DNA of 64,000 nucleotides from Candidatus Binatia bacterium. Lineage in GTDB: Bacteria; Desulfobacterota; Binatia; Bin18. A model generated the notes under the pieces. That model was not told the DNA's origin. It did not search any database and saw only the letters and a program-made list of their open reading frames with translations. The translations under genes were made by a program, and so were the position numbers. The number at the start of each line of letters is the position of its first letter. Position 1 is the first letter of the stretch. The stretch spans positions 2,074,947-2,138,946 of the forward strand of contig OZ246888.1 of the NCBI GenBank assembly GCA_965231775.1, given 5' to 3'. This document shows positions 7,039-57,487 of the stretch, piece after piece.

Positions 7039-7644
7039 GTGCGTATGGGACAGATTGAAGTCCTGAGTCCGGTTGGAGAAGCGCAAGTCGGTGATCTGCC
7101 GCTTGCCCGACGAGAGGGTAGCCTGCGCGGGAAAACAATCGGCTTTCTGAATAATCGCAAGGCCAACGCCGGCCTGCTGCTCGAACAGGTGGAAGCGCTG
7201 CTGCACGAACGGTGTGGAGATTTTAGGGTTATCCAGGGGGAGAAGAATGCTTCACTCGGTGTACCCCAAGAGGTGAGGGCACGCCTGTCAAGCTGTGACG
7301 TGATTGTCGAAGCCATAGGCGATTGAGGCTCGTGCACGTCGTGGGGTCTCCACGACACCATTGAATTTGAAAAGCAGGGCATTCCGACCGCCATCATTTG
7401 CAGCGACGAGTTTGCACCGCTCGGCCGGGCCGAGTCCCGCACCCTGGGCATGGGCGGTGTGCCCATTGCCGTGATTCCCCATCCCCTGGCCGGCAATACG
7501 CCGCAGGTGGTGCAGGCCAAGGCCGCGGCCGTAGTGGATGAAATTCTGGCCATTTTAACCCAGCCAGCGGAGCAGTTGGCCGACGCGTATCGCGGGCGGT
7601 TTCTCAAGCCCATGGAGAAAAAGATCGAGCGAGTGTCGGCGTAA
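7039..7644 (+). CDS. UGSC-motif selenoprotein with an in-frame TGA (Sec) at 7324-7326.
   Basis: Track ORFs 7039..7326 and 7450..7644 share a frame and are separated only by a TGA. Read-through gives ...CDVIVEAIGD-U-GSCTSWGLHDTIEFEKQGIPTAIICSDEF... A 7-bp hairpin follows 11 nt downstream. RBS GGGAGGTG precedes the ATG at 7039. A fused paralog with the same U-GSCT context is at 44217. Confidence 0.75.
7338..7356 (+). promoter_or_regulatory. Candidate bacterial SECIS hairpin (gtcgtgg-GGTCT-ccacgac).
   Basis: Perfect 7-bp stem with a GGUCU loop, starting 11 nt after the UGA at 7324-7326. Confidence 0.55.
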
Positions 7645-24136: not shown

Positions 24137-25306
24137 ATGCAAAAGAGCGACCAACGGATTCTCACCACCCACGTCGGCAGCCTGCCGCGCAATCCTGAGC
24201 TGACCGATCTGCTGATTGACCAAGAGCAGGGCCAGGCCATAGATGCCGCGGCCCTGGAGCGCCAATTCGAAATAGCCGTCCAACATGTGATTGACGAGCA
24301 GCTCAAAGCCGGGGTGGATATCATCAATGACGGCGAACAGCCGCGCATCGGTTTTCAGACCTATGTGCCGCAGCGCATGCGCGGCTTTGGCGGGGAGAGC
24401 CAGCGACCCACGCCGCAAGACATGGCCGAATTCCCGGACTTCATGGCTATGATGCAGCGGCGCAATATGATGCGGGCCAAGGTCTTCAACGCCCCGCAGG
24501 CCATTGCCGAGGTCGCCTACGATGACCTGTCCGGCGTGCAACACGAGTGTGGGTTGTTTCTGCGCTGTACGGAGCAGACGCCCGGCGCGTTCACCGAACG
24601 CTTCATGACCGCGGCTTCGCCCGGCATCATTGCCACCACCATGCTGAACGCCCATTACGATTCGCACGAGGCGTATGTGCTGGCGGTGGCCGAGCAGATG
24701 AAGAAAGAGTACGAATACATTCATGCCCAGGGCCTGCTGCTGCAACTCGACGCCCCCGACTTGGCTATGGAGCGGACCTTCCTCTTTCAGGAGCAGACCC
24801 TCGCCGAGTTTCAAAGGACCATCGAGGTCCATATCGAGGCCGTCAACCGCGCCACCGAGAATATCCCGGCCGAGCGTATCCGGTTGCATATCTGCTGGGG
24901 GAATTATGACGGTCCCCACAACCACGATGTGCCGCTGGCCGATATTCTGCCCGTTCTCTACCAGGCCCAGGTTGGAGCCCTGTCCATTGAGCTGGCGAAT
25001 CCCCGCCACCAACACGAATATAAAGCCTTCCGGCAGCATCCCTTACCCGACTCGATGCTGCTCATCCCCGGTGTGATCGATTCCACAAGCAACTATATCG
25101 AACACCCGGAAATCGTTGCCGACCGCCTGTGTCAGGTGGTCGACGCGGTCGGCGACCGGAGTCGGATCATTGCCGGTTCGGACTGCGGCTTTGGCACGTT
25201 TGCCGGCTGGGAGATGGTGTCTGAGAGCGTGGTGTGGGCCAAGCTGCGGGCGTGTGCCGAAGGTGCGCGTATGGCGTCGCAGCGCTTGTGGGGAGGGGCA
25301 GGGTGA
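24137..25306 (+). CDS. Cobalamin-independent methionine synthase II (MetE C-terminal domain-like) family protein.
   Basis: ILTTHVGSLPRNPEL is the family signature N-terminus. 389 aa. Confidence 0.8.
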   Translation: MQKSDQRILTTHVGSLPRNPELTDLLIDQEQGQAIDAAALERQFEIAVQHVIDEQLKAGVDIINDGEQPRIGFQTYVPQRMRGFGGESQRPTPQDMAEFPDFMAMMQRRNMMRAKVFNAPQAIAEVAYDDLSGVQHECGLFLRCTEQTPGAFTERFMTAASPGIIATTMLNAHYDSHEAYVLAVAEQMKKEYEYIHAQGLLLQLDAPDLAMERTFLFQEQTLAEFQRTIEVHIEAVNRATENIPAERIRLHICWGNYDGPHNHDVPLADILPVLYQAQVGALSIELANPRHQHEYKAFRQHPLPDSMLLIPGVIDSTSNYIEHPEIVADRLCQVVDAVGDRSRIIAGSDCGFGTFAGWEMVSESVVWAKLRACAEGARMASQRLWGGAG

Positions 25307-25357: not shown

Positions 25358-25890
25358 TCAGGCTCCGGTTATATTTGCCGTCCAGCCTTTGTCTCTATCG
25401 ACCGTTGTGGCTGAGATATTCTTTGAGGCGTAAAAGCCGACCAGCCCCAGGGCATCTTTTATCTGCAGCCGCCCGATCGGTCCCGAGGTATAGGTCACAT
25501 TCAGGATAGTGCGTGCGGGATCGATGATAAACGCCGCCGGTTGGATGATATTGCGTTTCTCCTCGTACCAGCAGGTCAGGGTCGCGGCCGTGGCCGGGCC
25601 GTCCGCGCCGTAAATGACGGGAAACGTCAGCCCCGACTTATCGACCGTCTGCTGGGCTTTGTCGAGCGGGTCGGTTGAGATGGCGTATACCGAAATCCCG
25701 GTCGCCTGGGCCTGCTCAAGATTGGCCTGATAATCAGCCAACTGCTGATCGCAGAATGGTCACCAGTGAGCCCGGTAGGTCAGGACGATAGCGTACGGGG
25801 TCGAGATGTCGGCCGGCAGATTGACCGTCCCTCCTCCGACGCTCGGACCGCTGAGGGCGGGAAAAGGATCTCCGGGGTGGAGGCGTTCCA
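25358..25890 (-). CDS. Thioredoxin-fold (redoxin/peroxiredoxin-like) selenoprotein with an in-frame TGA at 25760-25762 and a W-U-P-F-C motif.
   Basis: Track ORFs 25760..25948 and 25358..25741 on the minus strand are joined in frame by a TGA. Read-through gives MERLHPGDPFPALSGPSVGGGTVNLPADISTPYAIVLTYRAHW-U-PFCDQQLADYQ...GISVYAISTDPLDKAQQ...FIIDPARTI. The WUPFC motif parallels the thioredoxin/TlpA WCxxC motif. AAAGGAG precedes the ATG near 25890. Confidence 0.7.
25733..25749 (-). promoter_or_regulatory. Candidate SECIS hairpin (minus strand atcagc-AGTTG-gctgat).
   Basis: 6-bp perfect stem with a GU-containing loop, starting 11 nt 3' of the UGA on the minus strand. Confidence 0.45.
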
Positions 25891-26127
25891 TAGCTGTACT
25901 CCTTTCTGGGATACGCGCCGTCAGGGCGGATAAGGCGCGGTGGGCCACCTATAGCCATGACCCGGCGGCACGTCAAGGCAAGAGCGCGCCGCGCCGGTCT
26001 TCTGTAACCGACCGGTTCTGTGCTGCCGGCTGAATGACCCGGCCATACGGGCGGCCGTCCCGTTTCCGCCCGACCCGGAGAAGGGTAGGGCTTCAGCCGC
26101 TCGGACAGCCTGTGGTATATTGCAGGC

Positions 26128-26715
26128 ATGGCCAAATCTCCTCGACCCTCTGCATCTCAGCAGGCCGCCAAGAAAACCCTGGCCCAGACCCTGCTGGGTG
26201 CCATTGGTGCCGGGCTGCGAAAAATACCGACCACCTTTGTCCTGGTGCTGATCGGACTTTTCATTTATTTTCGTTCGCCAGACGAGGCGCAGCCACCAGA
26301 GCAACCACCCGAAGACGCGATAAACCAGGAAGAGCCGCAGCCACCGGCTGACCTGCCTGCCAATATCAGCCCGGCCTTTTGGACCTGTGTCTACCGCACC
26401 GACACGCAGCTCTCCGAAAGCCGCTGGGCGGATGTGTACCACGGCATGGAAGCCAGCGACGCCGGGCGCTCGGTATCCGTTTCCATCTCTCCAGAATGGA
26501 CTAATCTGACACCCGACCAACGCTCCACCGTGGTCGAACTGGTGGCGACGACTTGGCAAAAGAACAGCCAGGACTTGGCGCTGTTTGAGCCGGGAGCCGG
26601 GCTGGAAACCGTGACGCTCAAAAGCGCGGGCGACGACACGATTGTGGCAGTCTGGACGCCTGACGATGGGGTCCAACTCGTCGAAGGGGAATCCGAATCG
26701 CCAAGCCACGGATAG
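26128..26715 (+). CDS. Hypothetical membrane-anchored protein.
   Basis: One predicted TM helix (IPTTFVLVLIGLFIYF) and sensible composition. The overlapping minus-strand ORF 25921..26709 is R/W-rich, typical of antisense reads. Confidence 0.5.
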   Translation: MAKSPRPSASQQAAKKTLAQTLLGAIGAGLRKIPTTFVLVLIGLFIYFRSPDEAQPPEQPPEDAINQEEPQPPADLPANISPAFWTCVYRTDTQLSESRWADVYHGMEASDAGRSVSVSISPEWTNLTPDQRSTVVELVATTWQKNSQDLALFEPGAGLETVTLKSAGDDTIVAVWTPDDGVQLVEGESESPSHG

Positions 26716-31129: not shown

Positions 31130-31600
31130 ATGGCCAAAGAGAAATCAGCCGAGAGAGCGATCTGCGTCAATCGTAAAGCGCGGCACGACTATATCATTAG
31201 CGAAACCCTCGAAGCCGGGATTGTGCTGAACGGCGGAGAAGTCAAATCGCTCCGGGACGGTCGGGCCAACCTCAAAGACAGCTATGGCCGGATCGACAGG
31301 GGCGAGGCGTTTTTATTGAACGTGCATATCAGCGACTACAAACCGGCCCATTATTTCAACGGTGACCCCAACCGCAAGCGTAAGCTCCTGCTGCACAAAA
31401 AAGAAATCATGCGGCTAATGGGTAAAACAAAGGAGCAGGGACTGACCCTGGTTCCGCTGCGGCTGTACTTTAAGCAAGGCCGGGTCAAGGTTGAGTTGGC
31501 TTTGGCTAAGGGCAAACGGACGTATGACAAGCGGGCTGCCATTCGCGAACGCGAGATGAAGCGCGATGTTGAGCGTGCCATGCATAGACGAACGGGCTAA
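31130..31600 (+). CDS. smpB: SsrA-binding protein.
   Basis: RKARHDYIISETLEAGIVLNGGEVKSLRDGRANLKDSY is strongly conserved SmpB sequence. Confidence 0.9.
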   Translation: MAKEKSAERAICVNRKARHDYIISETLEAGIVLNGGEVKSLRDGRANLKDSYGRIDRGEAFLLNVHISDYKPAHYFNGDPNRKRKLLLHKKEIMRLMGKTKEQGLTLVPLRLYFKQGRVKVELALAKGKRTYDKRAAIREREMKRDVERAMHRRTG

Positions 31601-31654
31601 GGGGGTATACTCTCCCCACTCTTCCCTTCTGCGGGGACGAAATAATTCTGCTAA

Positions 31655-32006
31655 GGGGGCGATCTGGTTTCGACGTGGGCTAGAAAGCCAGGGCTGCATG
31701 CCGGGGTTCTGTCCCGCCCGTAAAACGGACAGGCTGCAATTTAACTGCAGACGATTTTGATTACGCTCTTGCTGCCTAGAGCAGCTTGCGTCTTACTGAC
31801 CCGCGCCCGTAGGGTTGGCTAAGGCGACACAAATCGGGATAGGGCTCGCATCGTGCCGAAGGGTGCGCGCCCGAAACTTTACTTTGGCTGGTCTGAGGGC
31901 ATCCTGCTCGTAGGAGGCCCGAGGATGAGATCAAACTACGAGCTACGCATTGTAGATGCCTTGAGTGGACTACTCTCGGACGCGGGTTCGATTCCCGCCG
32001 CCTCCA
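31655..32006 (+). ncRNA. ssrA: Transfer-messenger RNA (tmRNA). Tag reading frame about 31747-31779, giving tag peptide ADDFDYALAA.
   Basis: 5' GGGGGCGATCTGGTTTCGACGTGGG matches the tmRNA 5' acceptor/TLD, with an internal GGCTGCATGCCGGGG. The tag ORF gca gac gat ttt gat tac gct ctt gct gcc tag ends in the typical YALAA. The 3' end is TCGGACGCGGGTTCGATTCCCGCCGCCTCCA (T-arm plus acceptor); CCA is not encoded. Lies immediately downstream of smpB. A possible -10 (ATAATT) is at 31642-31647. Confidence 0.85.
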
Positions 32007-32041
32007 TTTTCTTTCTCCCTAAGAACCCGCAGGGGGTTCGT

Positions 32042-33058
32042 ATGCTTGACTCAATCAAATTTCAGAATTTCAAGATATTACGAAAGGCAACACTTCCGCT
32101 TGCGCCTTTTACCTTAATCGTCGGACCTAACGGGAGTGGGAAGAGTACGGCCTTACAAGCCCTCCAGGCGGTAAACCACACTAGTCACGTAAAATTTCAA
32201 GAGTATGTTACCGCTGGTCTGGAAACCATAGACAATACGGTCGTAAAGATTACACTCCAATGGAGCGAGCTATATGAAAAAGTGGTAACTACCGCGCCTT
32301 GGGCCCGTACCGGCAGCTATCTTCTCCATCATGCTCGACCATCTACAGGTCAAGAGCTACCTCCAGCTTCTGGACATCTGTTAAATTCCCTACTGTCTGG
32401 AATCCGAGTTTATGCGTTAGATGCTTCGGCCATAATTCAGCCCGTCCATCTTGAACCTGCTGTTGAACTTTCCCCAAACGGCCATCGCCTTGCAGGTGTG
32501 ATGGATCGTCTCAGAGATAAAGAGCCCGAGCGATTTGAGGCGTTGAATGATGAGATCGGACGGTGGCTGCCGGAATTCGATCGTATCCTTTTTGAAACGC
32601 CCAAAACCGGACACCGAGCTTTCTTATTACGCACCCGGAAAGGCCATCATAAGATACCAGCTAGAGACCTGTCCCAGGGAACAGTGTTGGCCCTGGCTAT
32701 TCTCACCCTGGTGTACCTTCCTGATCCGCCTCCCCTAATCGGGATAGAGGAACCGGAACGAGGAGTTCATCCTCGCCTTTTACGGAACATCCAGACGGCG
32801 CTCTATCGGTTAAGCTACCCAGAGCAGTTCGGCGAAGAGCGTCAGCCAGTTCAGGTGATTGCAACGACGCATTCTCCGTATTTTCTGGACCTCTATAAAG
32901 ATCATCCTGAAGAAATTGTCATTGCTCAAAAGACTGACGATGGAGCTACATTCGAGCGGTTGTCTGACCAGCCTGACATTATGGAAGTGCTGGACGATGC
33001 TCCCTTGGGCGAGGTCTGGTATAGCGGCATTCTTGGTGGCGTGCCGGCCGAGCAATGA
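32042..33058 (+). CDS. ABC-type/AAA (AAA_21-like) ATPase, lower GC, the first gene of an island at the tmRNA 3' end.
   Basis: Walker A GPNGSGKST, a signature-like LSQGT, Walker B LIGIEEPE and H-loop ATTHSP. AGGGGGT lies 6 nt before the ATG at 32042. The track ORF starts at 31853 inside the tmRNA, which is an artifact. Confidence 0.75.
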   Translation: MLDSIKFQNFKILRKATLPLAPFTLIVGPNGSGKSTALQALQAVNHTSHVKFQEYVTAGLETIDNTVVKITLQWSELYEKVVTTAPWARTGSYLLHHARPSTGQELPPASGHLLNSLLSGIRVYALDASAIIQPVHLEPAVELSPNGHRLAGVMDRLRDKEPERFEALNDEIGRWLPEFDRILFETPKTGHRAFLLRTRKGHHKIPARDLSQGTVLALAILTLVYLPDPPPLIGIEEPERGVHPRLLRNIQTALYRLSYPEQFGEERQPVQVIATTHSPYFLDLYKDHPEEIVIAQKTDDGATFERLSDQPDIMEVLDDAPLGEVWYSGILGGVPAEQ

Positions 33059-33687
33059 AGGTAGCGGTCCTCAGCGAATCGCCAGCGGACGAAGCGGCAA
33101 TTCGTATTCTCATTGACGGCATTATCGGCAGGCAAACTCAACCGGTTGATATGCCTCTAATCCGAACACGCGGCGTCTCCGGCGTCTTCACAATTCTTCC
33201 AACTGTACTCAAGCATTTGCACTACCGAACAGATGCAGATGCTCTCGTTATAGTGGTGGATTCCGACCAGACACCGGTGCATAAGACAGAGCATGAGCAA
33301 GCTGGCGGTGTCGATGAGAGGTGCAGACTTTGCAAAATACGTCGGACCATTGATTCTGTTCTTGCCCGACTTCGACCTGCTCAGGGACGCCCTCAGATTA
33401 AGGTTGCAGTCGGTATAGCCGTTCCAGCGGTAGAAGCCTGGTATCGATGTGGTCTCGACCCGCACGTCACTGAAGCCGCTTGGATAGTAAGTCTGCCGTC
33501 AGGTCCTTTCCCCTATACCATGAGAAGCCTGAAAGAAGATGTGTACGAAACGTCGCGTCCTTCGCTGGACCTGGAAACCCGTCATGCAACAGAAGAAGCG
33601 CGACGGCTCACTCAGGATTTGCCGCTTCTCGAACAATGCTTTCCTACTGGATTCGGTGCCCTGGCTCGTGACGTAAGGAATTGGTAG
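33055..33687 (+). CDS. Small Toprim-like protein (E...DxD) coupled to the ATPase. Candidate OLD/PARIS-like nuclease partner.
   Basis: Start overlaps the ATPase stop (ATGA). N-terminal MKVAVLSESPADE and ALVIVVDSDQ fit a Toprim Glu plus DxD. 210 aa. Confidence 0.5.
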   Translation: MKVAVLSESPADEAAIRILIDGIIGRQTQPVDMPLIRTRGVSGVFTILPTVLKHLHYRTDADALVIVVDSDQTPVHKTEHEQAGGVDERCRLCKIRRTIDSVLARLRPAQGRPQIKVAVGIAVPAVEAWYRCGLDPHVTEAAWIVSLPSGPFPYTMRSLKEDVYETSRPSLDLETRHATEEARRLTQDLPLLEQCFPTGFGALARDVRNW

Positions 33688-33741
33688 CGGCTGAGAGGCT
33701 GCCGTCGCCCGGACAGGGCGCAGTCTGTCACACCGAGCGCC

Positions 33742-36700
33742 TCACCCCGCACCAGCCTGCTCATACGCAAGCCCGAACACCGTATCGGTCAGCCAGCGCT
33801 TGAAGCTCTGGTTGTCCATGAACTGCTTGAACAGCTCGGTGTCGTCCTTCATCACCGAGGTCATCACCCGGAGCAGCGCCTTGTCGTGTTCGATACGGGC
33901 GTTCTCCCGGTCCGAGTTCTGCTGAGCGTTCTTGAAGGCCGTGTCCTCGGCCACCCTGGCAGGAATGGTCTGGGTAATGAGCTGCCGCACACGGTCGGCA
34001 TCGTCCCAGTCGATATCGCCGAAGAGATCGTTGAAGGCCCGCAGGATATTCGACAGCCGGTCCAACTCCGGCTCGGGCAGGTGGCCGCCGCCTATGGTCG
34101 GCACAGGTTCGATCTCGGCATCCTCGTCGGGTAGCATGATTTTCTGTATGGCCTGCTTCTCGGCCCGATAGCTGTCCATGTCGATGGCGTCGAGAATGCC
34201 CTTGGACAGGTCCTCCTCTTGGGGGGAGGGTAGCTTGGAGACCAGGAAATTCAGGAATATCGAGCGTTTCTCCCAGTCCGCGTTGGTATAGGGCAGGACC
34301 GACGACAGGAAGCCGTAGGTCCGCACAAAGCCCTTGGCCTTGCCCTTGAAGTCCACCTGGCCGTCTTCGTCCAAATCGCCCAGATAGACTGCCACGCAGG
34401 CATCGAGGATGGGGTCGAGCTGGTCACGTTCGGCTCCGCTAAGATAACGTGACACAAAGGCGTCGATCTGCTCGGAAGAATAGACCTGAGCGCCGTCAAG
34501 ATCAGCCTGCAAATCGTGCAGCTTGTTGGGGTCGGTCTCATCGGCCAGAATCGTCGCCCGATAGAAGCCGGCAAAGGACTCACAGATAATTGCGGTCTTG
34601 TTCAGAAAATCCAGCACGAAGACATCGTGCTTCTTGGGATGCGCCCGGTTGAGGCGCGACAGGGTCTGCACCGCCTTAACGCCCGCGAGCGTCTTGTCCA
34701 CATACATCGTGTGCAGCAGGGGCTCGTCATAGCCGGTCTGGAACTTGTCCGCACAGATCAGGAAACGGTAGGGGTCCTCTTGTATCTTCTCGGCGATCTT
34801 GCCGGACGGAAAACCGTTGAGCGACGCCTCGCTGACCTTGACTCCGCCGAACTCGGGCTCACCGGAGAACGCCACTATGGCCTGGTAACGGCTCTTGCGT
34901 TCTTTCAGGTAGTCGCGGATGGCGTGAAAGTACTGGATAGCGCGCTCAATACCGTTGGTGACGACCATGGCCCGTGCCTGGCCGCCGATCTTGTTCTGGG
35001 CCAGCACCTGCTCGTGAAAATGATCGACCATGATCTCGGCCTTGAGACGAATGGCATGGTCATGGCCCTCGACAAAGCGCCGCAGCTTCTTCTGGGCTTT
35101 CTTCGTATCGAACTGCGGGTCGTCTTCTACCGTCTTGGCCAGCTTGTAATAGCTGCTCACCGGCGTGTAGTGGGCCAGCACGTCCAGGATAAAGCCCTCC
35201 TGGATGGCCTGCTTCATGGTGTAGGTGTGAAAGGCGTGATGCTTGACCGTGCCGTCGGCCTGCGGGTCCGGGTTGCCGAAGATTTCCAGGGTCTTGTTCT
35301 TGGGCGTGGCCGTAAAGGCGAAGTAGCTGGCGTTGGGGAGCAGCTTGCGCGACTCCATCAAACGGTTGATCTGGTCCTCATAGGTCTCCTCTTCGCCCTC
35401 CTCACCGGCCCGGGACAGCGCCTGCGCCATGGCCGCGCTGGTGCGGCCGCCCTGGCTGGAGTGGGCCTCGTCGATGATAATGGCGAAGCGCCGCCCGCGC
35501 TGCTCGTCGCCGATCTCGTCGAGGATGAAGGGAAACTTCTGCACGGTCGAGATGATGATCTTCTTGCCGGACTCGATGAAGCGGCGCAGGTCGCCCGAAC
35601 GCTCGGCATGCCCGAGTGTCGCGCCGACCTGGGCGTACTGTTTGATGGTATCGCGAATCTGCTTGTCGAGAATCCGCCGGTCGGTGACCACGATGATCGA
35701 GTCGAAGACCGGGCTATCGTCTTTTGCCAGCCCGATCAGTTGATGCGCCAGCCAGGCAATGGAGTTGCTCTTGCCGCTGCCCGCCGAGTGCTGGATTAAA
35801 TAGCGCCGGCCCACGCCACGCGTCCCGGCGTCGGCTAGCAGCCGGCGCACCACGTCGAGCTGGTGGTAGCGCGGCCAGACCTGGGTCTTTTTCTTCCTGC
35901 CCGTCTTCTCGTCCCTGGACTCTACCACTTGGGCATAATTCTCCAGAATGTTGGTCAGGCTCTGGCGGGTCAGCACCTCACGCCACAGGTAGTCGGTCTT
36001 GAGCCCGTTCGGGTTGGGTGGGTTGCCCGCGCCGTCGTTCCAGCCCCGGTTGAAGGGTAGAAACCACGAGGACTTGCCCTGGGGGTGGGTGCAGAAGCGC
36101 GCTGCGCTCTCGTCCACGGCGAAGTGGGCCACGCAGCGCCCGAGTGCAAACAGCTTCTCGCGCGGGTTGCGGTCTTTTTTGTACTGCCAGACCGCGTCGT
36201 CCACGGTCTGCTTGGTCAGGCTGTTCTTGAGTTCAAAGGTAAAGACCGGCAGGCCGTTGATGAACAGCCCGATATCCAGCGCCCGCTGGGTTTCGTCGCG
36301 GCTGTAGCGTAGCTGGCGGGTAACGGTGAAGCGGTTCTGCTCGAAGCGTTCCTTCGCCTTCTGGTTGCCGGCTGAAGGCGTGCCGTAGAACAGGGCCAGG
36401 TGGTGCGACCCGTGGTCGAGGCCGTGGCGCAGCACGTCGATGCTGCCGCGCTTGGCAATCTCGCCCTGGAGCCGGGCCAGGAATTTACGCCGTGTGGGGC
36501 CGTCCTCGGACAGCCCCAGCGATGCCGCGGCCTTGGGTTGGGTGGCACGCAGGAAGGCCGAGAGCTGGACCAGATCGACGCAGTATTCCCGGTCGTAGTC
36601 GTGGAAGTTGCCGCCGCTCCAGCCCACACCGCCGTAGCCGGCGGGTGGTTCGGCCACTGTGCCCGTGGCGGGCGGCTCGCAGGGATGGCCGGCCAGCGCG

Positions 36701-36747
36701 GTGCAGATGAGGCGTTCGAGACCGCGTTCGGAGGTGTCGGTGGGCAT
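33742..36747 (-). CDS. hsdR: Type I restriction enzyme R subunit.
   Basis: 1001 aa with SF2 helicase motifs (QHSAGSGKSNSIAW, IIIDEAHSSQG) and N-terminal nuclease-domain similarity. Confidence 0.9.
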   Translation of the reverse strand: MPTDTSERGLERLICTALAGHPCEPPATGTVAEPPAGYGGVGWSGGNFHDYDREYCVDLVQLSAFLRATQPKAAASLGLSEDGPTRRKFLARLQGEIAKRGSIDVLRHGLDHGSHHLALFYGTPSAGNQKAKERFEQNRFTVTRQLRYSRDETQRALDIGLFINGLPVFTFELKNSLTKQTVDDAVWQYKKDRNPREKLFALGRCVAHFAVDESAARFCTHPQGKSSWFLPFNRGWNDGAGNPPNPNGLKTDYLWREVLTRQSLTNILENYAQVVESRDEKTGRKKKTQVWPRYHQLDVVRRLLADAGTRGVGRRYLIQHSAGSGKSNSIAWLAHQLIGLAKDDSPVFDSIIVVTDRRILDKQIRDTIKQYAQVGATLGHAERSGDLRRFIESGKKIIISTVQKFPFILDEIGDEQRGRRFAIIIDEAHSSQGGRTSAAMAQALSRAGEEGEEETYEDQINRLMESRKLLPNASYFAFTATPKNKTLEIFGNPDPQADGTVKHHAFHTYTMKQAIQEGFILDVLAHYTPVSSYYKLAKTVEDDPQFDTKKAQKKLRRFVEGHDHAIRLKAEIMVDHFHEQVLAQNKIGGQARAMVVTNGIERAIQYFHAIRDYLKERKSRYQAIVAFSGEPEFGGVKVSEASLNGFPSGKIAEKIQEDPYRFLICADKFQTGYDEPLLHTMYVDKTLAGVKAVQTLSRLNRAHPKKHDVFVLDFLNKTAIICESFAGFYRATILADETDPNKLHDLQADLDGAQVYSSEQIDAFVSRYLSGAERDQLDPILDACVAVYLGDLDEDGQVDFKGKAKGFVRTYGFLSSVLPYTNADWEKRSIFLNFLVSKLPSPQEEDLSKGILDAIDMDSYRAEKQAIQKIMLPDEDAEIEPVPTIGGGHLPEPELDRLSNILRAFNDLFGDIDWDDADRVRQLITQTIPARVAEDTAFKNAQQNSDRENARIEHDKALLRVMTSVMKDDTELFKQFMDNQSFKRWLTDTVFGLAYEQAGAG

Positions 36748-36799
36748 GTCTGTTATTCTGATGTGACTATAAAGGAGGAGAGTATTTCACTCTTACGTG

Positions 36800-37321
36800 T
36801 CATCTCGGTGGGCTCCAATGCAACTGGACGCCAAGCCGGCGTAGCATTTCAAAAGGACTGATACATTCCACATCAAAGGCGCGGCAAACGTTGGGTAGTG
36901 GGACTCGTCTGCGCACGTTCGGGTCGAATTGCTCCAGGGTGACCACGACACACCCTGTCTGCTTGGCATAGGCCGCAAGCCAGCCGTCGGCGACGTCTTG
37001 AAATTCTGTCTTAGCGGTGTCCTGGAACTGGGGCTGAGCCATCACCCATATCAACATTTGCTGGTACTCCGACGTAATAGCCGCTGTCGAAGTATCTACA
37101 AACGCGTTGGCACCGAATCGCTGTTCTGCCCAGTCCCAAAGGTCATCTCCTCCGCGTTTCAGTTCCTCCTGAACTCTGTCGATACTGTAGAGCCTTCCTT
37201 CCCGGTTGTAGTAGATAAGCACATGCCAATAGCCTGGACAGAAATCGAAGTCATAGAATCGCCGCTTCGCTTGAATAAAGACGTTGGCATCCAGCACATA
37301 TCTCTCATCTGCCTCGCTCAT
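36800..37321 (-). CDS. DUF4411 (PIN-like) family protein.
   Basis: N-terminal YVLDANVFIQAKRRFYDFDFCPGYW. 173 aa. Lies directly downstream of an ImmA/IrrE gene. Confidence 0.7.
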   Translation of the reverse strand: MSEADERYVLDANVFIQAKRRFYDFDFCPGYWHVLIYYNREGRLYSIDRVQEELKRGGDDLWDWAEQRFGANAFVDTSTAAITSEYQQMLIWVMAQPQFQDTAKTEFQDVADGWLAAYAKQTGCVVVTLEQFDPNVRRRVPLPNVCRAFDVECISPFEMLRRLGVQLHWSPPR

Positions 37322-37326
37322 TACGG

Positions 37327-38469
37327 CTACAATCCGAGTGTCTGCGCAAATTGGTCGAAACTCCGGCCATGCAGACCCGTGAGGCGATACGCGTCACGGT
37401 ACAGTAGCCGGCCCTCCCGCGCTGCACGAATGACCGCGCTACCGAAGCGACGGCCGACACGTCCCCGTTGCGCGTTGTAGAAATTCCCCCCACTCGATTG
37501 CTGCGCAGATCTTCGCCGTTCGTCAGCCTTGTATCGATCCAGGAATCCGTAGAAATCGTCTCCCGCCATCAACTCTCGATCCAACACTCGCCGGGCCGCT
37601 ACGAGGGGGCTGACCTTGAAGCGCCTCGCCAGCGCTTGAAACGGTTCGGCCGACTCGGCCACGCTCGGCCAGCAGCCATCAAGCTCGTCTCCCGGAATCA
37701 GTACTTCCGCCGCAACCTCGTTACAAAATCTTTCAACATCATCGTCGTAGGGCTGGAGGTTCACCAAGTTGAACACACCGCCTGTCCCCAACCACAGGTG
37801 GGCCAGTTCGTGCGCCAGGGTAAACATCTGAGCAGACGTGAAGTCCGCTCCGTTGATGAAGATTAAAGGCGCGTAATCGTCGCAGAGCACAAATCCCCGA
37901 AATTCCTCCGGGTCCAGTTTCTGTCGCGTATTGTTCTCCACGACGCCGTTGACGACGACCAAAACACCTATCTCTTCCACCGCCTGCCGAAGCCCAACGA
38001 GCGCGGCGGACCATGTAGGGTGCGTGCTCGCCCAGCCATCATCGACACCGAGTGTCCTTCGGATATTGTTGGCCGCGTCCACGCGACTCGAAGCCAACGT
38101 GACAGTCCCGACGAAGGCAAGAGGTTCTTCGCCTACCTCGATAAGATATTCGCGCATCCACTCTTGCCGCCGCTGCATTTGCCGCACAGTGGTTATCAGT
38201 GCCGCGCTCGGCCGCGCCGGCTGCTGGCCTTTGAGGGTGCGAAAATCAGCAACCGGTAATTTCTCATCCGGCGGCTCCTCTAAAAGCAAGGCTCCGAAGG
38301 GTGTGAGCGTCGCCTTTGCAAACCGCTCCAATTGCTTAAACGTCGGCTGCGCCTCACCGCCTTCCCACTGTGGCAGCTTCGGGAAGCGCTTCGCCAAGTC
38401 AGACATGTCCTTTCCCGAGCGCTCGCGCGCCCAGCGAACCACTGCGGGGTTCACCGCGACCTTGTTCAT
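37327..38469 (-). CDS. HTH (XRE-like) + ImmA/IrrE family metallopeptidase (DUF955).
   Basis: HELAHLWLG is the HExxH zinc peptidase motif, and the N-terminus is HTH-like. The start is chosen at MNKVAVNP; the track begins at 38511. Confidence 0.75.
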   Translation of the reverse strand: MNKVAVNPAVVRWARERSGKDMSDLAKRFPKLPQWEGGEAQPTFKQLERFAKATLTPFGALLLEEPPDEKLPVADFRTLKGQQPARPSAALITTVRQMQRRQEWMREYLIEVGEEPLAFVGTVTLASSRVDAANNIRRTLGVDDGWASTHPTWSAALVGLRQAVEEIGVLVVVNGVVENNTRQKLDPEEFRGFVLCDDYAPLIFINGADFTSAQMFTLAHELAHLWLGTGGVFNLVNLQPYDDDVERFCNEVAAEVLIPGDELDGCWPSVAESAEPFQALARRFKVSPLVAARRVLDRELMAGDDFYGFLDRYKADERRRSAQQSSGGNFYNAQRGRVGRRFGSAVIRAAREGRLLYRDAYRLTGLHGRSFDQFAQTLGL

Positions 38470-38517
38470 ATTGATAACACAGCACCCTGACCGGCTACGG
38501 TCAATCTTCAAAGTCGT

Positions 38518-39903
38518 CTATCGCTCAGCATATGCCGCGTCAATCAGAGCTTTAGCCTTATCAAACTGCTTTGGTTCGGCTTCCCCATCCGGCAACCGTA
38601 CAGCTGCCTCGCGCACGTCGAGCTTGCCGGTGACGACATCGGCGATCAGGCGGGTGCGGTATTCGTGGAGGATAGCTTGCTCTTTGCGGCAATTACCTAT
38701 CGCTATGGCGATCTTGCTCTGTTCCTCATCCAGGACCGCAGCGATTCGGTCCTGTTCGGACACTGGTGGAACCGCGATCAAGAGGGCCTTGATGTCCGCG
38801 ACGTTAATTCGATTGAACGTTGAACCGACAAGGAGCAATGCAAGTTGATCTGACATGACCTTGCTGTGCAGGAAGTAGTTTAGCCATCGCTGGTTCTCGG
38901 AAGAGGACCTGATGAGACATACATCTTGTCCCATCGCGAAACGATCCTCTGTCGTGACAAGGGCAGCGGCCCCAACGCTTACGTTGCGGCAATAGATCAG
39001 GTCTCCAGGCCGAGGCTCCCTTCCTCCTTCGATCAGCTTCTCATACCATTCGGGAGTGGTACGGTTTGATGCTTTGAAGTTTAGCTCGAAGGACTGTGCT
39101 TCCCGTACGCTGGCCAAGGGAATACCACCATCGACGAAAGGCACTGTAAGGTGCTTGCAGTCGATAACCTGCCATTTCCTCCGGAGTGCAACCACCTCCC
39201 AATGCTCCGGCACCTCCCCCAGCCACTCCACGCCGGAGGGCTTGTAGACCGGGTAGGGCTGGCCGGTGCGGATGTCGATCTGGCCGGTGACGGCTTGGTG
39301 GATGAGGGCCTGCTTCTGCTCTTCCAGCAGCGCAATCAGCTTCTCCTTGGCGTGGATGTAGCACCGGATGCGCCGGTCGGCGTGGTCGAGGAAGCGGGCG
39401 ATGGCGGTTTGTTCGGAGAGGGGCGGGACACCCAGCTCTATATTCCTAACCTGCTTTGATGAGAGATGTTTGACGGTCGTAGAGTGTGCAAGGTCCCCAA
39501 TGATCTTTAATGGTAGTTCAACAGCGCGGACAATAAACCCTGCGCGGGAGGAATTTTTCGCTCGGAGACAACACATCCTCTGATTTAGCAAGGCGGCCGG
39601 TCCCCGCCATCGCGCAACGTTGAACAATCCGTCCATCCCCACGATGATATCACCCGTTTCAATCAGAGCCTCTTCAACGATGGCACCACCGTAATTCACC
39701 TCTGTCTTGATAGCGTGCAAATCGCGAATCCGAATAAGCGGTGTTCCTTCTCCCTTCACAAAGTACTGCGAGTCAAAGGGATAGCCGTTGACTACTGTGG
39801 CAATGCTGGACAAACGAGACACCTCCCAATGTGCCGGCACCTCTCCCAGCCACGGCACACCGGAATCCTTGTAGGCAGGGTAGGGTTTCAGTTCGGCGGC
39901 CAT
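38518..39903 (-). CDS. hsdS: Type I restriction-modification specificity subunit (two target-recognition domains).
   Basis: Duplicated architecture with a repeated WLGEVPxHWEV...L and the central and C-terminal conserved helices of HsdS. 461 aa. Confidence 0.85.
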   Translation of the reverse strand: MAAELKPYPAYKDSGVPWLGEVPAHWEVSRLSSIATVVNGYPFDSQYFVKGEGTPLIRIRDLHAIKTEVNYGGAIVEEALIETGDIIVGMDGLFNVARWRGPAALLNQRMCCLRAKNSSRAGFIVRAVELPLKIIGDLAHSTTVKHLSSKQVRNIELGVPPLSEQTAIARFLDHADRRIRCYIHAKEKLIALLEEQKQALIHQAVTGQIDIRTGQPYPVYKPSGVEWLGEVPEHWEVVALRRKWQVIDCKHLTVPFVDGGIPLASVREAQSFELNFKASNRTTPEWYEKLIEGGREPRPGDLIYCRNVSVGAAALVTTEDRFAMGQDVCLIRSSSENQRWLNYFLHSKVMSDQLALLLVGSTFNRINVADIKALLIAVPPVSEQDRIAAVLDEEQSKIAIAIGNCRKEQAILHEYRTRLIADVVTGKLDVREAAVRLPDGEAEPKQFDKAKALIDAAYAER

Positions 39904-39906
39904 TTG

Positions 39907-39960
39907 TCAGTCAAAAAGCGTTTTCGCGACCTCGTTGCCCGAGAGGTCACGGAGCAGCTT
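39907..39960 (-). pseudogene. Possible truncated hicA-like toxin remnant (17 codons, MKLLRDLSGNEVAKTLFD*) overlapping the hsdS start.
   Basis: Short ORF immediately 3' of the hicB-like gene. Its N-terminus resembles the HicA/YcfA start, but it ends in a stop just where hsdS begins. Confidence 0.2.
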
Positions 39961-40172
39961 CATACCGCGATGGCCTCTTCCTTGATGAGATGGAGCCTGA
40001 TGGCTCTTGGTGCGGTGTCTTCGTCGAAATGGCAGAGGACCGCGTCCTTCACCATGTCTTTCAGGTCGTCCCAATCATCGCCCTGGGTGAAAATACTGTA
40101 CCCAAGCGCTCGGGCGTCGTACCCGCCTTCAACTGCCTCCGTGACCTCGAAAATGATCTCGGTCGGTCTCAT
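39960..40172 (-). CDS. hicB: HicB-like (UPF0150) antitoxin.
   Basis: MRPTEIIFEVTEAVEGGYDARALGYSIFTQGDDWDDLKDMVKDAV fits the UPF0150/HicB N-terminal domain. The track ORF starts at 40193. Confidence 0.55.
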   Translation of the reverse strand: MRPTEIIFEVTEAVEGGYDARALGYSIFTQGDDWDDLKDMVKDAVLCHFDEDTAPRAIRLHLIKEEAIAV

Positions 40173-40235
40173 CGAATAATCCTCCGTGTGCATCTCTGCA
40201 CGCGTCGCCCCTCCGATTGGCGTCGGCGCGCATGT

Positions 40236-42221
40236 TCATGACTTGCTGTTACCCCCGATGATCTCGTCCAACAACCCCTCCGTCTCTTGCTCCAGTGACA
40301 GAATATCCGCCCGGATGTCCGCTAGCGTCCGCAGGGGCTGCGGCTTGTAGAAGTAGCGGGTGAAGCTGATCTCGTAGCCGACCTTCACGTTGTCGGGCTG
40401 ATACCAGGCGTCAGAGGCGTAGGGCAGGACCTCGCGCTGTAGGAAGGCTTCGATCCCGCCCGCCTCTTGCAATGGAATCTGCTCGGTGTCGCGCAGGTCG
40501 GTGTCGGGCTCGTACTCCACCACGGCGGGTTTGCCGTTGATGGTGGTGGCGAACAGGCCACGTAACGAGTCAGCTTCCGTGCCTTTCTTGTGAAATTTCT
40601 TGATGACGGGTGGCGCGTCCTCGCTGCGCTCGCCGTTTTCTTTGAGCTTCTTGATCTCGGCAGCCTTGTAGGCGCGATTGGGGTCAGTGCCTTGGATACG
40701 CAGCGGTCGCTCGACCGTGACCTTCCAATAGCCGAAGGCGGCGTTGTCGAATATTTTGCTCTGCTGGCTCTCCTTGAAGTCAAGAAAGGTGTCGCAGATA
40801 CGAGCGATGTCTTCCTCTGACAGCTCACAGTTCTTCTTGCCCAGGTTCTTGCGCAAAGGCCGGTACCAGGTAGTAGCGTCGATCAACTGCACCTTGCCCC
40901 GGCGATGCGCGGGCTTGCGGTTGGTCAGCACCCAGACGTAGGTGGCGATGCCGGTGTTGTAGAACATATTGAGGGGCAGAGCGACGATGGCCTCCAGCCA
41001 GTCGTTCTCGATAATCCAGCGGCGGATATTGCTCTCGCCCTGCCCGGCGTCGCCGGTGAACAGCGAGCTACCGTTGTGCACCTCGGCGATGCGGCTGCCG
41101 AGCGGGGTGTCCTGCTTCATCTTGGAGAGCTTGTTGGCGAGAAAAAGCATCTGACCGTCGCTCGAACGGGTGACCAGCGAATACTCGGGGTCGCCGGCAT
41201 GTTCGATCACGAAGCGCGGGTCGCGCATGTCCTGCTTGCCGCCCATGCGCTCCAGGTCGGTCTTCCAGCTCTTGCCGTAGGGCGGGTTGGACAGCATGAA
41301 ATCGAACTCGCGGGCCGGGAAGGCATCGTTGGCCAGGGTGGAGTGTTCCGGGCCGCCCACGATGTTGTCGGCGGCTTCTCCCTCACCCTTGAGCAAGAGG
41401 TCGGCGGTGCAGATGGCGTAGGTCTCGGCGTTGATCTCCTGGCCGTAGAGATGGGTGGATACGTCCTTGTCGTACTCGGCGGCGAGTTGCCGCAGGGTGT
41501 CTTCGGCCACGGTCAGCATGCCGCCGGTGCCGTAAGCGCCGTCATAGAGCAGATAGGTGCCGGATTTGATTGCGTCGGCAATGGGTAGGAAAACGAGCCT
41601 GGCCATGAGGGTTACGGCGTCGCGCGGGGTCCAGTGTTCGCCGGCCTCCTCGTTGTTCTCCTCGTTGAAGCGGCGCACCAGCTCCTCGAAGATCGAACCC
41701 ATGCCGTGGTTGTCGAGGCCGGGGTGTTTGACCGAGCCGTCGGTGTTGAGGACCGGGGCTGGGCTCAGGTTGATATCGGGCGAGGTGAGCTTCTCGATCA
41801 GCGTGCCCAGGGCGTCGGCTTTGGACAGGCGCGTAATCTGGTTGCGAAACTCGAAGTTGTCGAGGATGTCCTGCACGTTGGGCGAGAACCCATTGAGGTA
41901 GTCTTCAAAGTCTGCCGTCAACTGCTGGCGATTGGCGCGGGCTCTGAGGTCGCGCAGGGTGAACTTGGAGGTGTTGTAGAACGCCTGGCCCGCGGCCTGG
42001 CGCAGGGCCGGGTCCTGTTCGACCACGCCCGCCGTATCGAGGCTGGCCCGCATGTCCAGGACGGCCTGCTTGCTGTCTTCCAGGACCGCATCCAGCCGGC
42101 GCAGTACGGTCATGGGCAGGATCACGTCGCGATACTTGCCACGCACGTACAGGTCGCGCAGCACGTCGTCGGCAATGCCCCAGATGTAGTTGGCAATCCA
42201 GTTCAGGTCGGTGGTGCTCAT
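40236..42221 (-). CDS. hsdM: Type I restriction-modification DNA methyltransferase (N6-adenine).
   Basis: FMLSNPPYGKSWK is the NPPY catalytic motif, and the N-terminal HsdM domain begins MSTTDLNWIANYIWGIADDVLR. The start is chosen at 42221; the track extends to 42431. Confidence 0.9.
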   Translation of the reverse strand: MSTTDLNWIANYIWGIADDVLRDLYVRGKYRDVILPMTVLRRLDAVLEDSKQAVLDMRASLDTAGVVEQDPALRQAAGQAFYNTSKFTLRDLRARANRQQLTADFEDYLNGFSPNVQDILDNFEFRNQITRLSKADALGTLIEKLTSPDINLSPAPVLNTDGSVKHPGLDNHGMGSIFEELVRRFNEENNEEAGEHWTPRDAVTLMARLVFLPIADAIKSGTYLLYDGAYGTGGMLTVAEDTLRQLAAEYDKDVSTHLYGQEINAETYAICTADLLLKGEGEAADNIVGGPEHSTLANDAFPAREFDFMLSNPPYGKSWKTDLERMGGKQDMRDPRFVIEHAGDPEYSLVTRSSDGQMLFLANKLSKMKQDTPLGSRIAEVHNGSSLFTGDAGQGESNIRRWIIENDWLEAIVALPLNMFYNTGIATYVWVLTNRKPAHRRGKVQLIDATTWYRPLRKNLGKKNCELSEEDIARICDTFLDFKESQQSKIFDNAAFGYWKVTVERPLRIQGTDPNRAYKAAEIKKLKENGERSEDAPPVIKKFHKKGTEADSLRGLFATTINGKPAVVEYEPDTDLRDTEQIPLQEAGGIEAFLQREVLPYASDAWYQPDNVKVGYEISFTRYFYKPQPLRTLADIRADILSLEQETEGLLDEIIGGNSKS

Positions 42222-42374
42222 CTTTTTGCGTATCCCTGAGGGGCCTGTAGCGGATATCACACGGAACGCAGGACACAACACTCCGGGCGTGTACCGAAGG
42301 GCAGAGGCGAGGCAGGGGCCTACGGAACAGAGGAGAGCCTTACGGATCGCGGGGCAGGCGTCAATCCCTGCTCT

Positions 42375-42540
42375 TATGTGGGTGTCGGCGAACCCACTCA
42401 TGCCGATGCCATCCTCGACCGGTTGGTGCACAACGCCTATCGCATCGAGCTGAGGGGCGAATCGATGCGAAAAATCAACGCCGGGAGAGGTAGACGACTC
42501 AAGGCCAAGGTTTTACTGTACGAAGGCTATGAGGGAGAAT
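42375..42540 (+). mobile_element. IS21-family istB C-terminal remnant (pseudogene fragment).
   Basis: Frame translation ...[43 protein letters not shown]...* matches the conserved IstB C-terminus (AILDRL..H....I.L.GeSyR). No N-terminal ATPase part or istA is present. Confidence 0.55.
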
Positions 42541-44216: not shown

Positions 44217-45920
44217 ATGAGTTCACATAGCGAAATTCACTACGAGGTCGTCTGGCCGAAATCGCCGCTAGCGGTACAGACACGGCATCCCGCCGAGCGG
44301 CTCGATACGCTCGAGGGCAAACGAGTCGGGTTCCTGTGGGATTTCCTGTTTCGCGGTCACGAGCTTTTTCCGGTCATAGAAAAAGAGCTGCAGAACCGTT
44401 TCACCGGGATCGAAATCGTCGGGTACGACGAATTCGGCAACACGCACGGGGGCGATGAAGCCGCGGTGATTGCGGCCCTTCCTAACCGGTTGCGTGACCG
44501 CCGTATCGACGCCGTCGTCTCCGGGGTGGGATGTTGAGGGAGTTGTACGCCCGCCGTGATGCGGGCGTCGGTTGTCGCGGAAGCCGCCGGGGTGCCGTCG
44601 GTGTCGCTGGTCTGTGAAGGTTTCGAACGCCAGGCGTCGGCCACCGGTCGCGGCGCGGGATTCGACGGACTTCCCCTCGGCGTGCTGCGCGGGCACGTGG
44701 ACGCTCAGAGCCACGACGAGATGATCGGCTACCTGCGTGACTCGACACTTGACCAGATCATAGCCGGTCTCACCAGCGCACCGGTCGTCAGTGAGGGCGC
44801 TGCCGCCGAGCCCGCGCCACTGGATGTCGTTGCCACGGGAACGATTGACGATATCAACGAACGTTTCAGCGTTGAGGGGTGGAGCGACGGCCTGCCGGTC
44901 ATTCCGCCGACCCAGGACCGGGTCGCGGCGTTTCTCGCCGCGCTGAACGATAACCCCTGGAGAGTAATCGGCACCGCCCGGCCCTCGGGCCGCGATATCT
45001 CGGTCTGGTCGGTTGCCGTCAATGCCGTCATGACCGGTTGTCAGCCTCGGCACCTGCCCGTGCTCTTGGCGCTCGCCGAAATCATTGCCGATCCCGGTTA
45101 CGGCGTCGAGCACTCGGGCAACACCACCGGGGCCGACGCCCTCGTCATCGTGAATGGGCCGTCGATGGCCGAACTCGGCTTCAACGCCCGGCAGGGGGTA
45201 CTTCGGGAGGGCGCCCACGCGAATACCAGCGTCGCCCGATGGCTCCGGCTGTACCTGCGCAATGTCTGTGGATTCACCGCCGATGAACACGACAAGGCCA
45301 CGTTCGGTAACAGCACCCGGGTGGTATTGGCCGAAGATGAGCAGACGCTGACCGACATCGGCTGGCAACCACTGAGTGCGGAGTTCGGGTTCGGGCGGGG
45401 CGACGACGTGGTCACCATGGCCCGCATGAACAGTGGCCTCATCCTTGGCAGCGTCTTCGGATCGACAGGCGATGCGATTGTGCCGTATCTGGCCGACGGC
45501 CTCGTTCGAGTCAGTGGCTGGGACCTCGCGCACATCTACGGGTTCGGACAGGGCCATTATCGACCGCTGCTGATCCTTTCCCCGATACTGGCGCGCACAT
45601 TCGCCCGATCCGGCTGGAGTAAGGATGACGTCAAGCAGGCGCTGTTCATGAAGGCACGGCTGCCGGCGGCCAGGTTCGAGCAGCTCATCGGCGAGTGGAG
45701 CAACATCGATGCGGGGCGCCGACCCCTGTTCGAACTGGCGACCGAAGGTCTGGTCCCGCCGGTCTTCGGCGAGTCCAACGATCCGCAACGCCTCGTGCCG
45801 ATCGTGACCGAGGCCTCGAAGTTTCTGATCGCCGTTGCAGGCGACCCGAACCGGAACAATGCCTACGTAATGAGTAACGATGGCCCGCACGGTGACTGGA
45901 CGGCCAAGGCCGTACCATGA
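44217..45920 (+). CDS. Fused UGSC-motif selenoprotein domain plus partner domain, with an in-frame TGA (Sec) at 44535-44537.
   Basis: Track ORFs 44217..44537 and 44556..45920 share a frame and are separated by a TGA. Read-through gives ...AVVSGVGC-U-GSCTPAVMRASVVAEAAG...ERFSVEGWSDGLPVIPPTQDRV... An 8-bp hairpin follows 9 nt downstream. The stop overlaps the transporter start. Confidence 0.7.
44547..44568 (+). promoter_or_regulatory. Candidate SECIS hairpin (acgcccgc-CGTGAT-gcgggcgt).
   Basis: Perfect 8-bp stem with a GU-containing loop, 9 nt after the UGA. Confidence 0.5.
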
Positions 45921-55016: not shown

Positions 55017-55054
55017 GCTCCACCACAGATGCAGCCCATGAAGGAGATGAGAGC

Positions 55055-55708: not shown

Positions 55709-55767
55709 GGCTGCGCTGGCCGTTCTGGAAGTGGCGAAACTGAGCACCCTGAGTGGACTGGTGATGC

Positions 55768-57474: not shown

Positions 57475-57487
57475 CGAGGCATTGTCG

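Follow-up and report, generated by a model that had tools for sequence, protein, structure and literature searches.

Does the TGA triplet at positions 25762-25760 of this 64-kb stretch of Candidatus Binatia DNA (contig OZ246888.1; hereafter the window, by which we mean the whole stretch) end a small minus-strand gene, or is it read as selenocysteine (Sec, U) in the middle of a larger one? The list of open reading frames (ORFs) holds two minus-strand entries at this locus, 25760..25948 (62 amino acids (aa), with a nominal GTG start) and 25358..25741 (127 aa, with a TTG start). Both lie in the same frame, and only the TGA and six sense codons (PFCDQQ) separate the first from the TTG at 25741. 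Read through, they form one gene for a protein related to peroxiredoxins (Prx), and we consider it very probable that the gene encodes a genuine selenoprotein and belongs to the Prx-like UxxC family. The gene and the two residues at its centre are the following.

25358..25891, minus strand: complete coding sequence of a Prx-like (AhpC/TSA fold) selenoprotein, with its ATG at 25891-25889 and 177 codons including Sec44.
25760..25762, minus strand: UGA codon 44, first position of the U-P-F-C motif, read as Sec on the evidence of its conservation and of Cys in relatives.
25751..25753, minus strand: Cys47 codon TGC, the partner of Sec44 in UxxC, invariant in the Sec/Cys alignment and aligned to AhpC structures.

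The preliminary description of this locus, made from the sequence alone, had joined the two frames through the TGA to give a product of about 177 aa with LTYRAHW-U-PFC, AISTDP and FIIDPAR segments. The ORF list and the translation agree with this on both counts: the read-through translation of 25891..25358 runs MERLHPGDPFPALSG...LTYRAHW-*-PFCDQQLADYQ...AISTDP...FIIDPAR...GWTANITGA, has 177 codons and a stop (the terminal TGA at 25360-25358), and reads AHW-U-PFCDQQLADYQANLEQAQATGISVYAISTDPLDK around Sec44. The span given there, 25358-25890, holds for the gene as such, but its upper end is one base off, since the ATG begins at 25891, which is in frame.

If the TGA were a real stop, we would be looking at a split or decaying gene, or at two ORFs of 43 aa and of 127 aa from the TTG at 25741, with no Sec involved. 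Public records annotate the locus in this way (the syntenic relative L030, for instance, is recorded as a 43-aa ORF and a 127-aa 'AhpC-TSA' ORF), homologues are shortened, and no Sec machinery was found in the window. The orthologues argue otherwise. Our scan for them, which covered one genome per GTDB species, returned 29 loci, nearly all from Candidatus Binatia or Binatota metagenome-assembled genomes (MAGs), that match residues 1-176/177 straight over the stop at identities from 96% down to 66%. Codon 44 is a stop in all 29 of them, with the protein sequence kept on both sides, and with the window included it is TGA in 30 of 30. A recount without the window and without one frameshifted locus, L029, gives TGA in 28 of 28; in the same orthologues the terminal stop varies freely among TGA (13), TAA (11) and TAG (4). 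A distant relative (P0023/L032, 45% identity) has the TGA as well, in ...YRAYW-TGA-PYCRQQLAAF, and has been called as two ORFs of 48 aa and 108 aa; with it the count rises to 31 of 31 sequences, always TGA and never TAA or TAG.

Selection on the codons points the same way. The ratio of nonsynonymous to synonymous substitution rates (dN/dS) of the N-terminal 42 codons is about 0.08-0.27, similar to that of the C-terminal part (orthologue dS from 0.09 to >1), and their variable columns, 25, 14 and 41 of 43 at codon positions 1, 2 and 3, carry the signature of coding sequence in this frame. The six codons between the TGA and the TTG, which include Cys47, are conserved under purifying selection across lineages in which dS is saturated. 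By these comparisons both halves of the gene are under purifying selection. A lack of conservation in the N-terminal 43 aa, named beforehand as what would speak against a selenoprotein, is thus the opposite of what the alignment shows. The domain itself spans the stop: the read-through protein matches Pfam AhpC-TSA (pfam00578) with 75.6 bits, the downstream ORF alone reaches 40.5 bits (from profile position 45), and the 43-aa piece has no match; by itself, the downstream piece would be without strands beta1-beta3 and the active site. Given this, together with a hairpin found only in TGA forms and Cys forms that are contiguous (both described below), we regard a real stop at codon 44 as extremely improbable. 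The frameshifted locus excluded from the recount (CBDESS010000002.1, match 6001-6527) keeps the TGA and the hairpin, and its reading frame is lost beyond about codon 95, through either decay to a pseudogene or an assembly indel.

Directly after the TGA lies a hairpin that resembles a bacterial selenocysteine insertion sequence (SECIS).

25732..25750, minus strand: SECIS-like hairpin GAUCAGC-AGUUG-GCUGAUU, 7 bp including the closing G-U, with a 5-nucleotide (nt) loop (comparative evidence).

Counted from the UGA, the stem occupies +10..+16 and +22..+28 and the loop +17..+21. The 6-bp hairpin with GU in its loop that had been proposed to start 11 nt after the UGA is present as the core of this structure, AUCAGC/GCUGAU from +11, extended to 7 bp by the G-U pair, and its evaluated energy is -8.4 kcal/mol. 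A check for a SECIS-type hairpin had also been suggested, and its outcome separates the two kinds of gene completely (31 of 31 TGA forms have the hairpin, 0 of 81 Cys forms): 6-7 of the 7 in-register pairs form in every TGA form, as against 1-5 (mode 3) in every Cys form, and the Cys form L031, for example, has no hairpin. The loop is AGUUG in 24 sequences and AGUUA in 7, with an invariant G at its second position. GATCAGC-AGTTR-GCTGA is invariant in 30 Binatia sequences, synonymous positions included, and in L032 the fifth pair has switched from U-A to G-C, one compensatory change. Synonymous-codon entropy, taken in six-codon sliding windows, has its lowest value in the gene at codons 48-53 (0.19 bits, compared with a mean of 0.76), and each of the six windows with the least entropy overlaps codons 44-55. 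The hairpin loop also contains the TTG that encodes the invariant Leu51 and that has been mistaken for the start codon of the downstream ORF.

In Escherichia coli, the fdhF-type SECIS has a minimal 17-nt upper stem-loop that begins 11 nt after the UGA. The present hairpin is alike in its 17-nt core of a 6-bp stem and a 5-nt loop from +11, in having G and U in the apical loop, and in lying inside the coding sequence; it is unlike the fdhF element in having no bulged U in the stem and in its loop sequence. Its spacing and its small, G-containing apical loop also agree with the description of bacterial SECIS elements (PMC1088965). We infer a bacterial SECIS function for this hairpin, which is specific to the TGA forms.

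The relatives that lack the TGA show which residue belongs at position 44. Our first database search gave a single full-length match, P0021 (158 aa, 43% identity), in which W-C-P-S-C stands at the Sec position, and an exhaustive search of representative sequences with the 127-aa ORF yielded 307 relatives at E values up to 1e-3. Twenty-three longer relatives extend into the active site, of which 19 have YRxxW-C-x-x-C and 20 have CxxC (in P0036 as A-C-x-x-C); of the remaining relatives, P0044 and P0061 have WCxxS and P0043 and P0077 have WWxxC. Homologues had been expected to carry Cys at the U position, and the YRGxWCxxC of the full-length relatives bears this out. Ten positions are invariant in the alignment of Sec and Cys forms: Y39, R40, W43, U/C44, C47, L51, S72, D74, P91 and Y134. 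In metagenomes, a scan with the pattern YR[GA][HYN]WC[PR][FYS]C, which returns Cys forms only and served as our negative control, found at least 562 Cys-form loci.

Many of the shortened database entries begin in the hairpin itself. Start sites were counted for 172 relatives from the two protein searches: 25 cover the N-terminal part, and 85 begin 0-12 residues past the Sec codon, 73 of them exactly at Leu51, because gene finders have taken the TTG in the loop as a start codon. The suggestion that prediction from a TTG makes the downstream half look like a truncated gene is therefore confirmed well beyond the window. Every public record that we examined has the gene split or shortened at the UGA, and an exact look-up of the 127-aa ORF of the window found it not on record. 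No curated NCBIfam model reaches its cut-off on the protein (scores are given below), and the gene is consequently shortened in public annotation.

Two of the relatives named above, P0043 (SWWPSC) and P0077 (HWWFYC), are full-length with Trp at the Sec position; this Trp may be true variation or a gene-caller artefact in which the TGA was read as Trp under code 4 or 25. They lend some colour to a different account of codon 44, in which the UGA yields one of the standard amino acids (Trp, Cys or Gly) through a near-cognate or suppressor tRNA or an alternative code. In the window, TGA is the terminator of 12 of the 30 genes with domain support, the present gene included, and there has therefore been no genome-wide reassignment. 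The position is that of the redox-active Cys of CxxC in homologues, which makes a classic Sec/Cys pair, and a SECIS-like hairpin follows at the canonical spacing. We consider a standard residue at codon 44 very unlikely, and Sec the residue that best accounts for these observations.

What kind of protein is it? For the searches, Sec44 of the read-through protein was replaced by Cys. The AhpC-TSA match, at 75.6 bits (cut-off 26), covers residues 6-129 and profile positions 1-121 of 124, and the read-through protein also matches Redoxin (36.5 bits), as the preliminary description had anticipated in proposing a search with these two hidden Markov models (HMMs). The AlphaFold2 model of the Cys homologue P0021 has a mean confidence score (pLDDT) of 97 and places C44 directly before a helix at residues 45-56. 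Searched against the PDB with Foldseek, this model returns Prx, BCP or AhpC structures as all of its top 50 matches, with TM scores of about 0.85 and about 20% identity. By way of this 43%-identical model, the window protein is predicted to have the peroxiredoxin fold.

The active site is another matter. In a HMMER alignment to AhpC structures (1e-5), Arg40 takes the place of the active-site Pro, Sec44 that of the conserved Thr, Cys47 that of the peroxidatic Cys, and Pro118 that of the catalytic Arg (the R119/120 position of AhpC). Of the PxxxT/SxxC motif only C47 is kept, and the protein thus lacks three of the four catalytic residues of a canonical Prx. Arg40 is invariant in the family, most members have Q-P or Q-A at the site of the catalytic Arg, and the second conserved Prx Arg is retained in GPIGR141. 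The call of a thioredoxin/peroxiredoxin-fold protein therefore stands for fold and domain and fails, by its active-site residues, for a canonical peroxiredoxin. Compared with the canonical groups (AhpC/Prx1, BCP/PrxQ, Prx6, Sec-Prx and PrxU), the protein shares the predicted fold, Cys47 and the GPIGR Arg, and differs in the Arg40, Sec44 and Pro118 replacements, in having Sec three residues before the peroxidatic position, and in its NCBIfam scores, which are far below the cut-offs: 29.7 bits for AhpC (cut-off 272), 27.5 for BCP (cut-off 140), 13.7 for PrxU (NF040737; cut-off 270) and 19.2 for the SelL-related redox model (NF040769; cut-off 120).

Since the Pro, Thr and Arg of the canonical Prx site are absent, selenenylsulfide chemistry between Sec44 and Cys47 is likeliest, and, judging from these residues, we think that the protein is probably a thiol:disulfide oxidoreductase. 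The same gene, with Sec inserted, might instead encode a true peroxidase of H2O2 or organic hydroperoxides in which either Sec44 or Cys47 is peroxidatic and the other resolving, as in an atypical 2-Cys Prx. Sec is a good peroxidatic residue in GPx and Sec-Prx, the best matches are all peroxiredoxins (by AhpC-TSA score, by AhpC structures and in the Foldseek top 50), Cys47 aligns with the peroxidatic Cys, and R141 is kept. The three replaced catalytic residues and the low scores of the equivalog models AhpC, BCP and PrxU speak against a peroxidase, and the literature keeps the UxxC family apart from Sec-Prx, whose motif is TxxU; we judge this version rather unlikely and prefer the oxidoreductase.

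Oxidoreductases of the TlpA/ResA/CcmG type are similar in carrying W-C/U-x-x-C at the N-terminus of the active-site helix and in weak sequence matches; PDB 3ia1, a 'thio-disulfide isomerase/thioredoxin', for example, matches at 2e-5 over residues 5-152. The curated models are again well short of their cut-offs (ResA 20.1 bits, cut-off 170; StoA 24.1 bits, cut-off 210), and those proteins are exported or membrane-anchored, whereas here the fold starts at residue 6 (profile position 1). Judged from the profile, a signal peptide or anchor would not fit in front of the fold, and the protein, predicted to be leaderless, is presumably cytoplasmic.

A family with these properties is already known. 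The Sargasso Sea study defined a 'Prx-like protein' selenoprotein family (PMC1088965, Zhang, Fomenko & Gladyshev 2005), and in the Global Ocean Sampling (GOS) study it appears as 'Prx-like 1, pfam00578, UxxC', represented by 225 selenoproteins and 2,740 Cys homologues (PMC2398784, Zhang & Gladyshev 2008). Reviews cover it as a Prx-like thiol:disulfide oxidoreductase family (PMC9312934 and PMC13188914), it is found in, for example, Geobacter, Syntrophus and Desulfotalea, and the literature terms its motif thioredoxin-like in setting it apart from the TxxU of Sec-Prx. The window protein has the pfam00578 domain, the thioredoxin-like UxxC motif (W-U-P-F-C, not TxxU) and similarity to family members with U aligned to U: BLASTP to the GOS 'Prx-like 1' read JCVI_READ_1161201 gives 41% identity over 123 aa (E 3e-29). 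Reads in the GOS supplement have ...YRGHW-U-PYC...WWEERRDHIQPSEFVI...YSNSPIGR. With the family, the window protein and its orthologues share YR(G/A)xW-U-P-(F/Y)-C, W[WY]EE+R..IQP, YSxGPIGR, a mixed Sec/Cys membership and a SECIS directly after the UGA; what distinguishes this clade is its origin in Candidatus Binatia MAGs, the presence of Sec alone at all 29 orthologous loci found, and a C-terminal extension.

25361..25420, minus strand: C-terminal 20-aa tail NISATTVDRDKGWTANITGA, outside the Prx-fold core, with a GWTAN motif; conserved in orthologous loci L001-L028.

The tail, …NISATTVD(R/K)DKGWTAN(I/V)TGA, occurs in the Binatia clade only and is missing in L032, in the GOS reads and in the Cys homologues. 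Our literature search found nothing linking Binatia or Binatota to selenocysteine or selenoproteins, and the selenoproteome papers it covered make no mention of the lineage. The host lineage and the clade-specific tail are what is new here, the family itself being already known.

Two upstream elements complete the picture of how the gene would be expressed.

25899..25905, minus strand: ribosome-binding site AAAGGAG, 7 nt upstream of the ATG, with the (A)AGGAG core in all 18 aligned orthologue upstream regions.
25948..25976, minus strand: candidate sigma-70-like promoter, with TTGACG at 25976-25971, a 17-nt spacer and TATAGG at 25953-25948.

The ribosome-binding site had been noted before the upstream ATG in the preliminary description, and we locate it at 25905-25899. 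TTGAC-N17/18-TATA(G/A)(G/A) occurs in most of the 18 orthologue upstream regions, including distant ones with diverged flanks, which suggests that the candidate promoter may be functional; L021, L023 and L027 keep the TTGAC box and have no clear TATA box at that spacing. A consensus scan missed the candidate since the last base of its -10 box is G. The neighbours of the gene are a MetE-like gene (24137..25306), which converges on it, and a divergently oriented, fast-evolving gene for a 195-aa hypothetical protein (26128..26715), with MtnA beyond; the gene thus stands alone as a single-gene unit. Of the 29 loci, 22-26 retain this arrangement, which indicates vertical inheritance and gives no hint of function.

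Taken together, these elements suggest the following mechanism. Transcription would begin at the gene's own candidate promoter, TTGACG-17-TATAGG, and translation at the ATG at 25891 behind AAAGGAG. At codon 44 the UGA would not terminate: the hairpin 10-11 nt downstream (25750-25732) would recruit SelB-GTP-Sec-tRNA(Sec), and Sec would be inserted. We infer this SelB-dependent step from the comparisons above and by analogy with fdhF of E. coli, the established paradigm. Sec44 would then stand at the N-terminus of the first active-site helix, where a thioredoxin-type CxxC has its nucleophilic Cys, with Cys47 one turn later to form the selenenylsulfide. The couple would reduce a disulfide, sulfenate or peroxide substrate and would be recycled by a thioredoxin-type reductant.

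Several observations weigh against this account and should be set beside the evidence for it. Folded as a single sequence, the hairpin is no more stable than shuffled sequences (z -0.84 and -1.14), no Rfam family matches it at the gathering threshold and none matches at E values up to 10 over 25650-25800, and minimum free energy (MFE) folds contain competing hairpins, namely a 4-bp CUGC/GCAG and UUGGCU.../...AGGCCAA. There is no selA, selB, selD or tRNA-Sec gene in the 64-kb window. The proposed catalytic chemistry is argued from homology and residue positions alone. Finally, the family is only 'predicted' in the reviews, with no member shown experimentally to contain selenium (PMC9312934, PMC13188914). 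Because the single-sequence energies are not significant and Rfam has no family for it, the case for the SECIS is a comparative one.

As for the competing folds, the hairpin UUGGCUGAUUAUCAGGCCAA (UUGGCU...AGGCCAA in the MFE fold) was rejected since it is not conserved in orthologues. CUGC-GAUCA-GCAG, which appears in the MFE fold of a 35-nt piece, was rejected as a SECIS because it forms in 51 of the 81 Cys forms too, where the Cys and Gln-Gln codons provide it, and because its loop starts only 9 nt after the UGA and has no GU.

The search for Sec machinery comprised an ARAGORN run over the window, which found the transfer-messenger RNA (tmRNA) only and no tRNA-Sec, and Pfam and NCBIfam scans of about 40 window ORFs and of the annotated syntenic locus L030, which found no SelA, SelB or SelD. 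The same window has two further genes of the UGSC type with an in-frame TGA, which lend indirect support to the use of Sec.

7045..7644, plus strand: UGSC-family selenoprotein gene, with TGA at 7324-7326, 199 aa, NF041046 140.6 bits (cut-off 125).
44217..45920, plus strand: candidate UGSC-domain fusion selenoprotein, with TGA at 44535-44537, motif VGC-U-GSC and a hairpin at 44543..44571.

In the first of these, the TGA falls at the U of ...AIGD-U-GSC, and a perfect 7-bp hairpin, GUCGUGG-GGUCU-CCACGAC (7338..7356), starts 11 nt after it. The second scores 45.8 bits with NF041046 over profile positions 2-143, and Pfam UGSC matches the part downstream of the TGA; its UGSC-like domain is N-terminal, followed by about 380 aa without a Pfam match, and the gene lies between amidase and SSF transporter genes. 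Its TGA is followed by an 8-bp GC-rich hairpin with the loop CGUGAU, and thus both genes have a hairpin of 7-8 bp with GU in the loop after the TGA. A fusion of UGSC with an unknown domain is mentioned in the GOS paper (PMC2398784). A codon-bias scan of the window returned nothing at a strict threshold and, at a relaxed one, the present gene and the 44535 site.

Other candidates for Sec codons were rejected. The TGA at 6958, upstream of the DsbA-like ORF 6337..6942, is one of them, since the ATG of that ORF already starts at position 2 of the DSBA profile; a match to Rcas_1661 near the same ORF is weak and reflects the thioredoxin fold only. The TGA at 29347 ('MG-U-GSC') is another: its translation is not protein-like and overlaps the GH3 and PanB genes. 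The DsbA-like protein (6337..6942, minus strand) matches Pfam DSBA with 90 bits, has A-S-S-L-S-Y at the CxxC position and is without cysteines; its gene is transcribed divergently from the UGSC selenoprotein gene.

Elsewhere in the window, SmpB (31130..31600) precedes the tmRNA (31655..32009, tag ADDFDYALAA), after which comes a stretch that resembles a defence island (31130..42431 in all). It includes an AAA_21/AAA_15 ATPase ORF (31853..33058), whose nominal start overlaps the 3' end of the tmRNA, and a type I restriction-modification system with HsdR, DUF4411, Peptidase_M78/IrrE-like, HsdS and HsdM. In L030 this site is occupied by integrase fragments, a reverse transcriptase and BrxL. A signalling cluster at 53727..62374 contains a VWA-like protein, a kinase-like/PP2C phosphatase fusion (55768..57474), a PknB-type Ser/Thr kinase (57455..59863), an FHA protein (59929..60786) and a VWA-FHA protein (60809..62374).

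Is the Binatia clade then a functionally distinct selenoenzyme and not merely another Prx-like UxxC redoxin? Its Sec-only state at 29 loci, vertical inheritance in a fixed position and the GWTAN tail would be reasons to think so, as would its active site, in which Sec stands where Prx have Thr, the peroxidatic position is held by Cys, and an invariant Arg replaces the Pro. We hold this to be doubtful, and less probable than not by a wide measure. If it were true, Candidatus Binatia, with three selenoprotein genes within 64 kb, would stand out as a previously undescribed selenoprotein-rich lineage; none of the papers searched ascribes this status to it.

The gene brings no new recoding mechanism or protein class, and the main value of the finding is the correction of annotation. 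The active site of a widespread redox protein is systematically absent from the databases, and a family HMM combined with a TGA/SECIS signature would fix this. With the two UGSC genes, the locus is an indication that selenocysteine is used by the Binatia, which are uncultured and come mostly from soil and sediment, and this bears on their trace-element needs and redox physiology.

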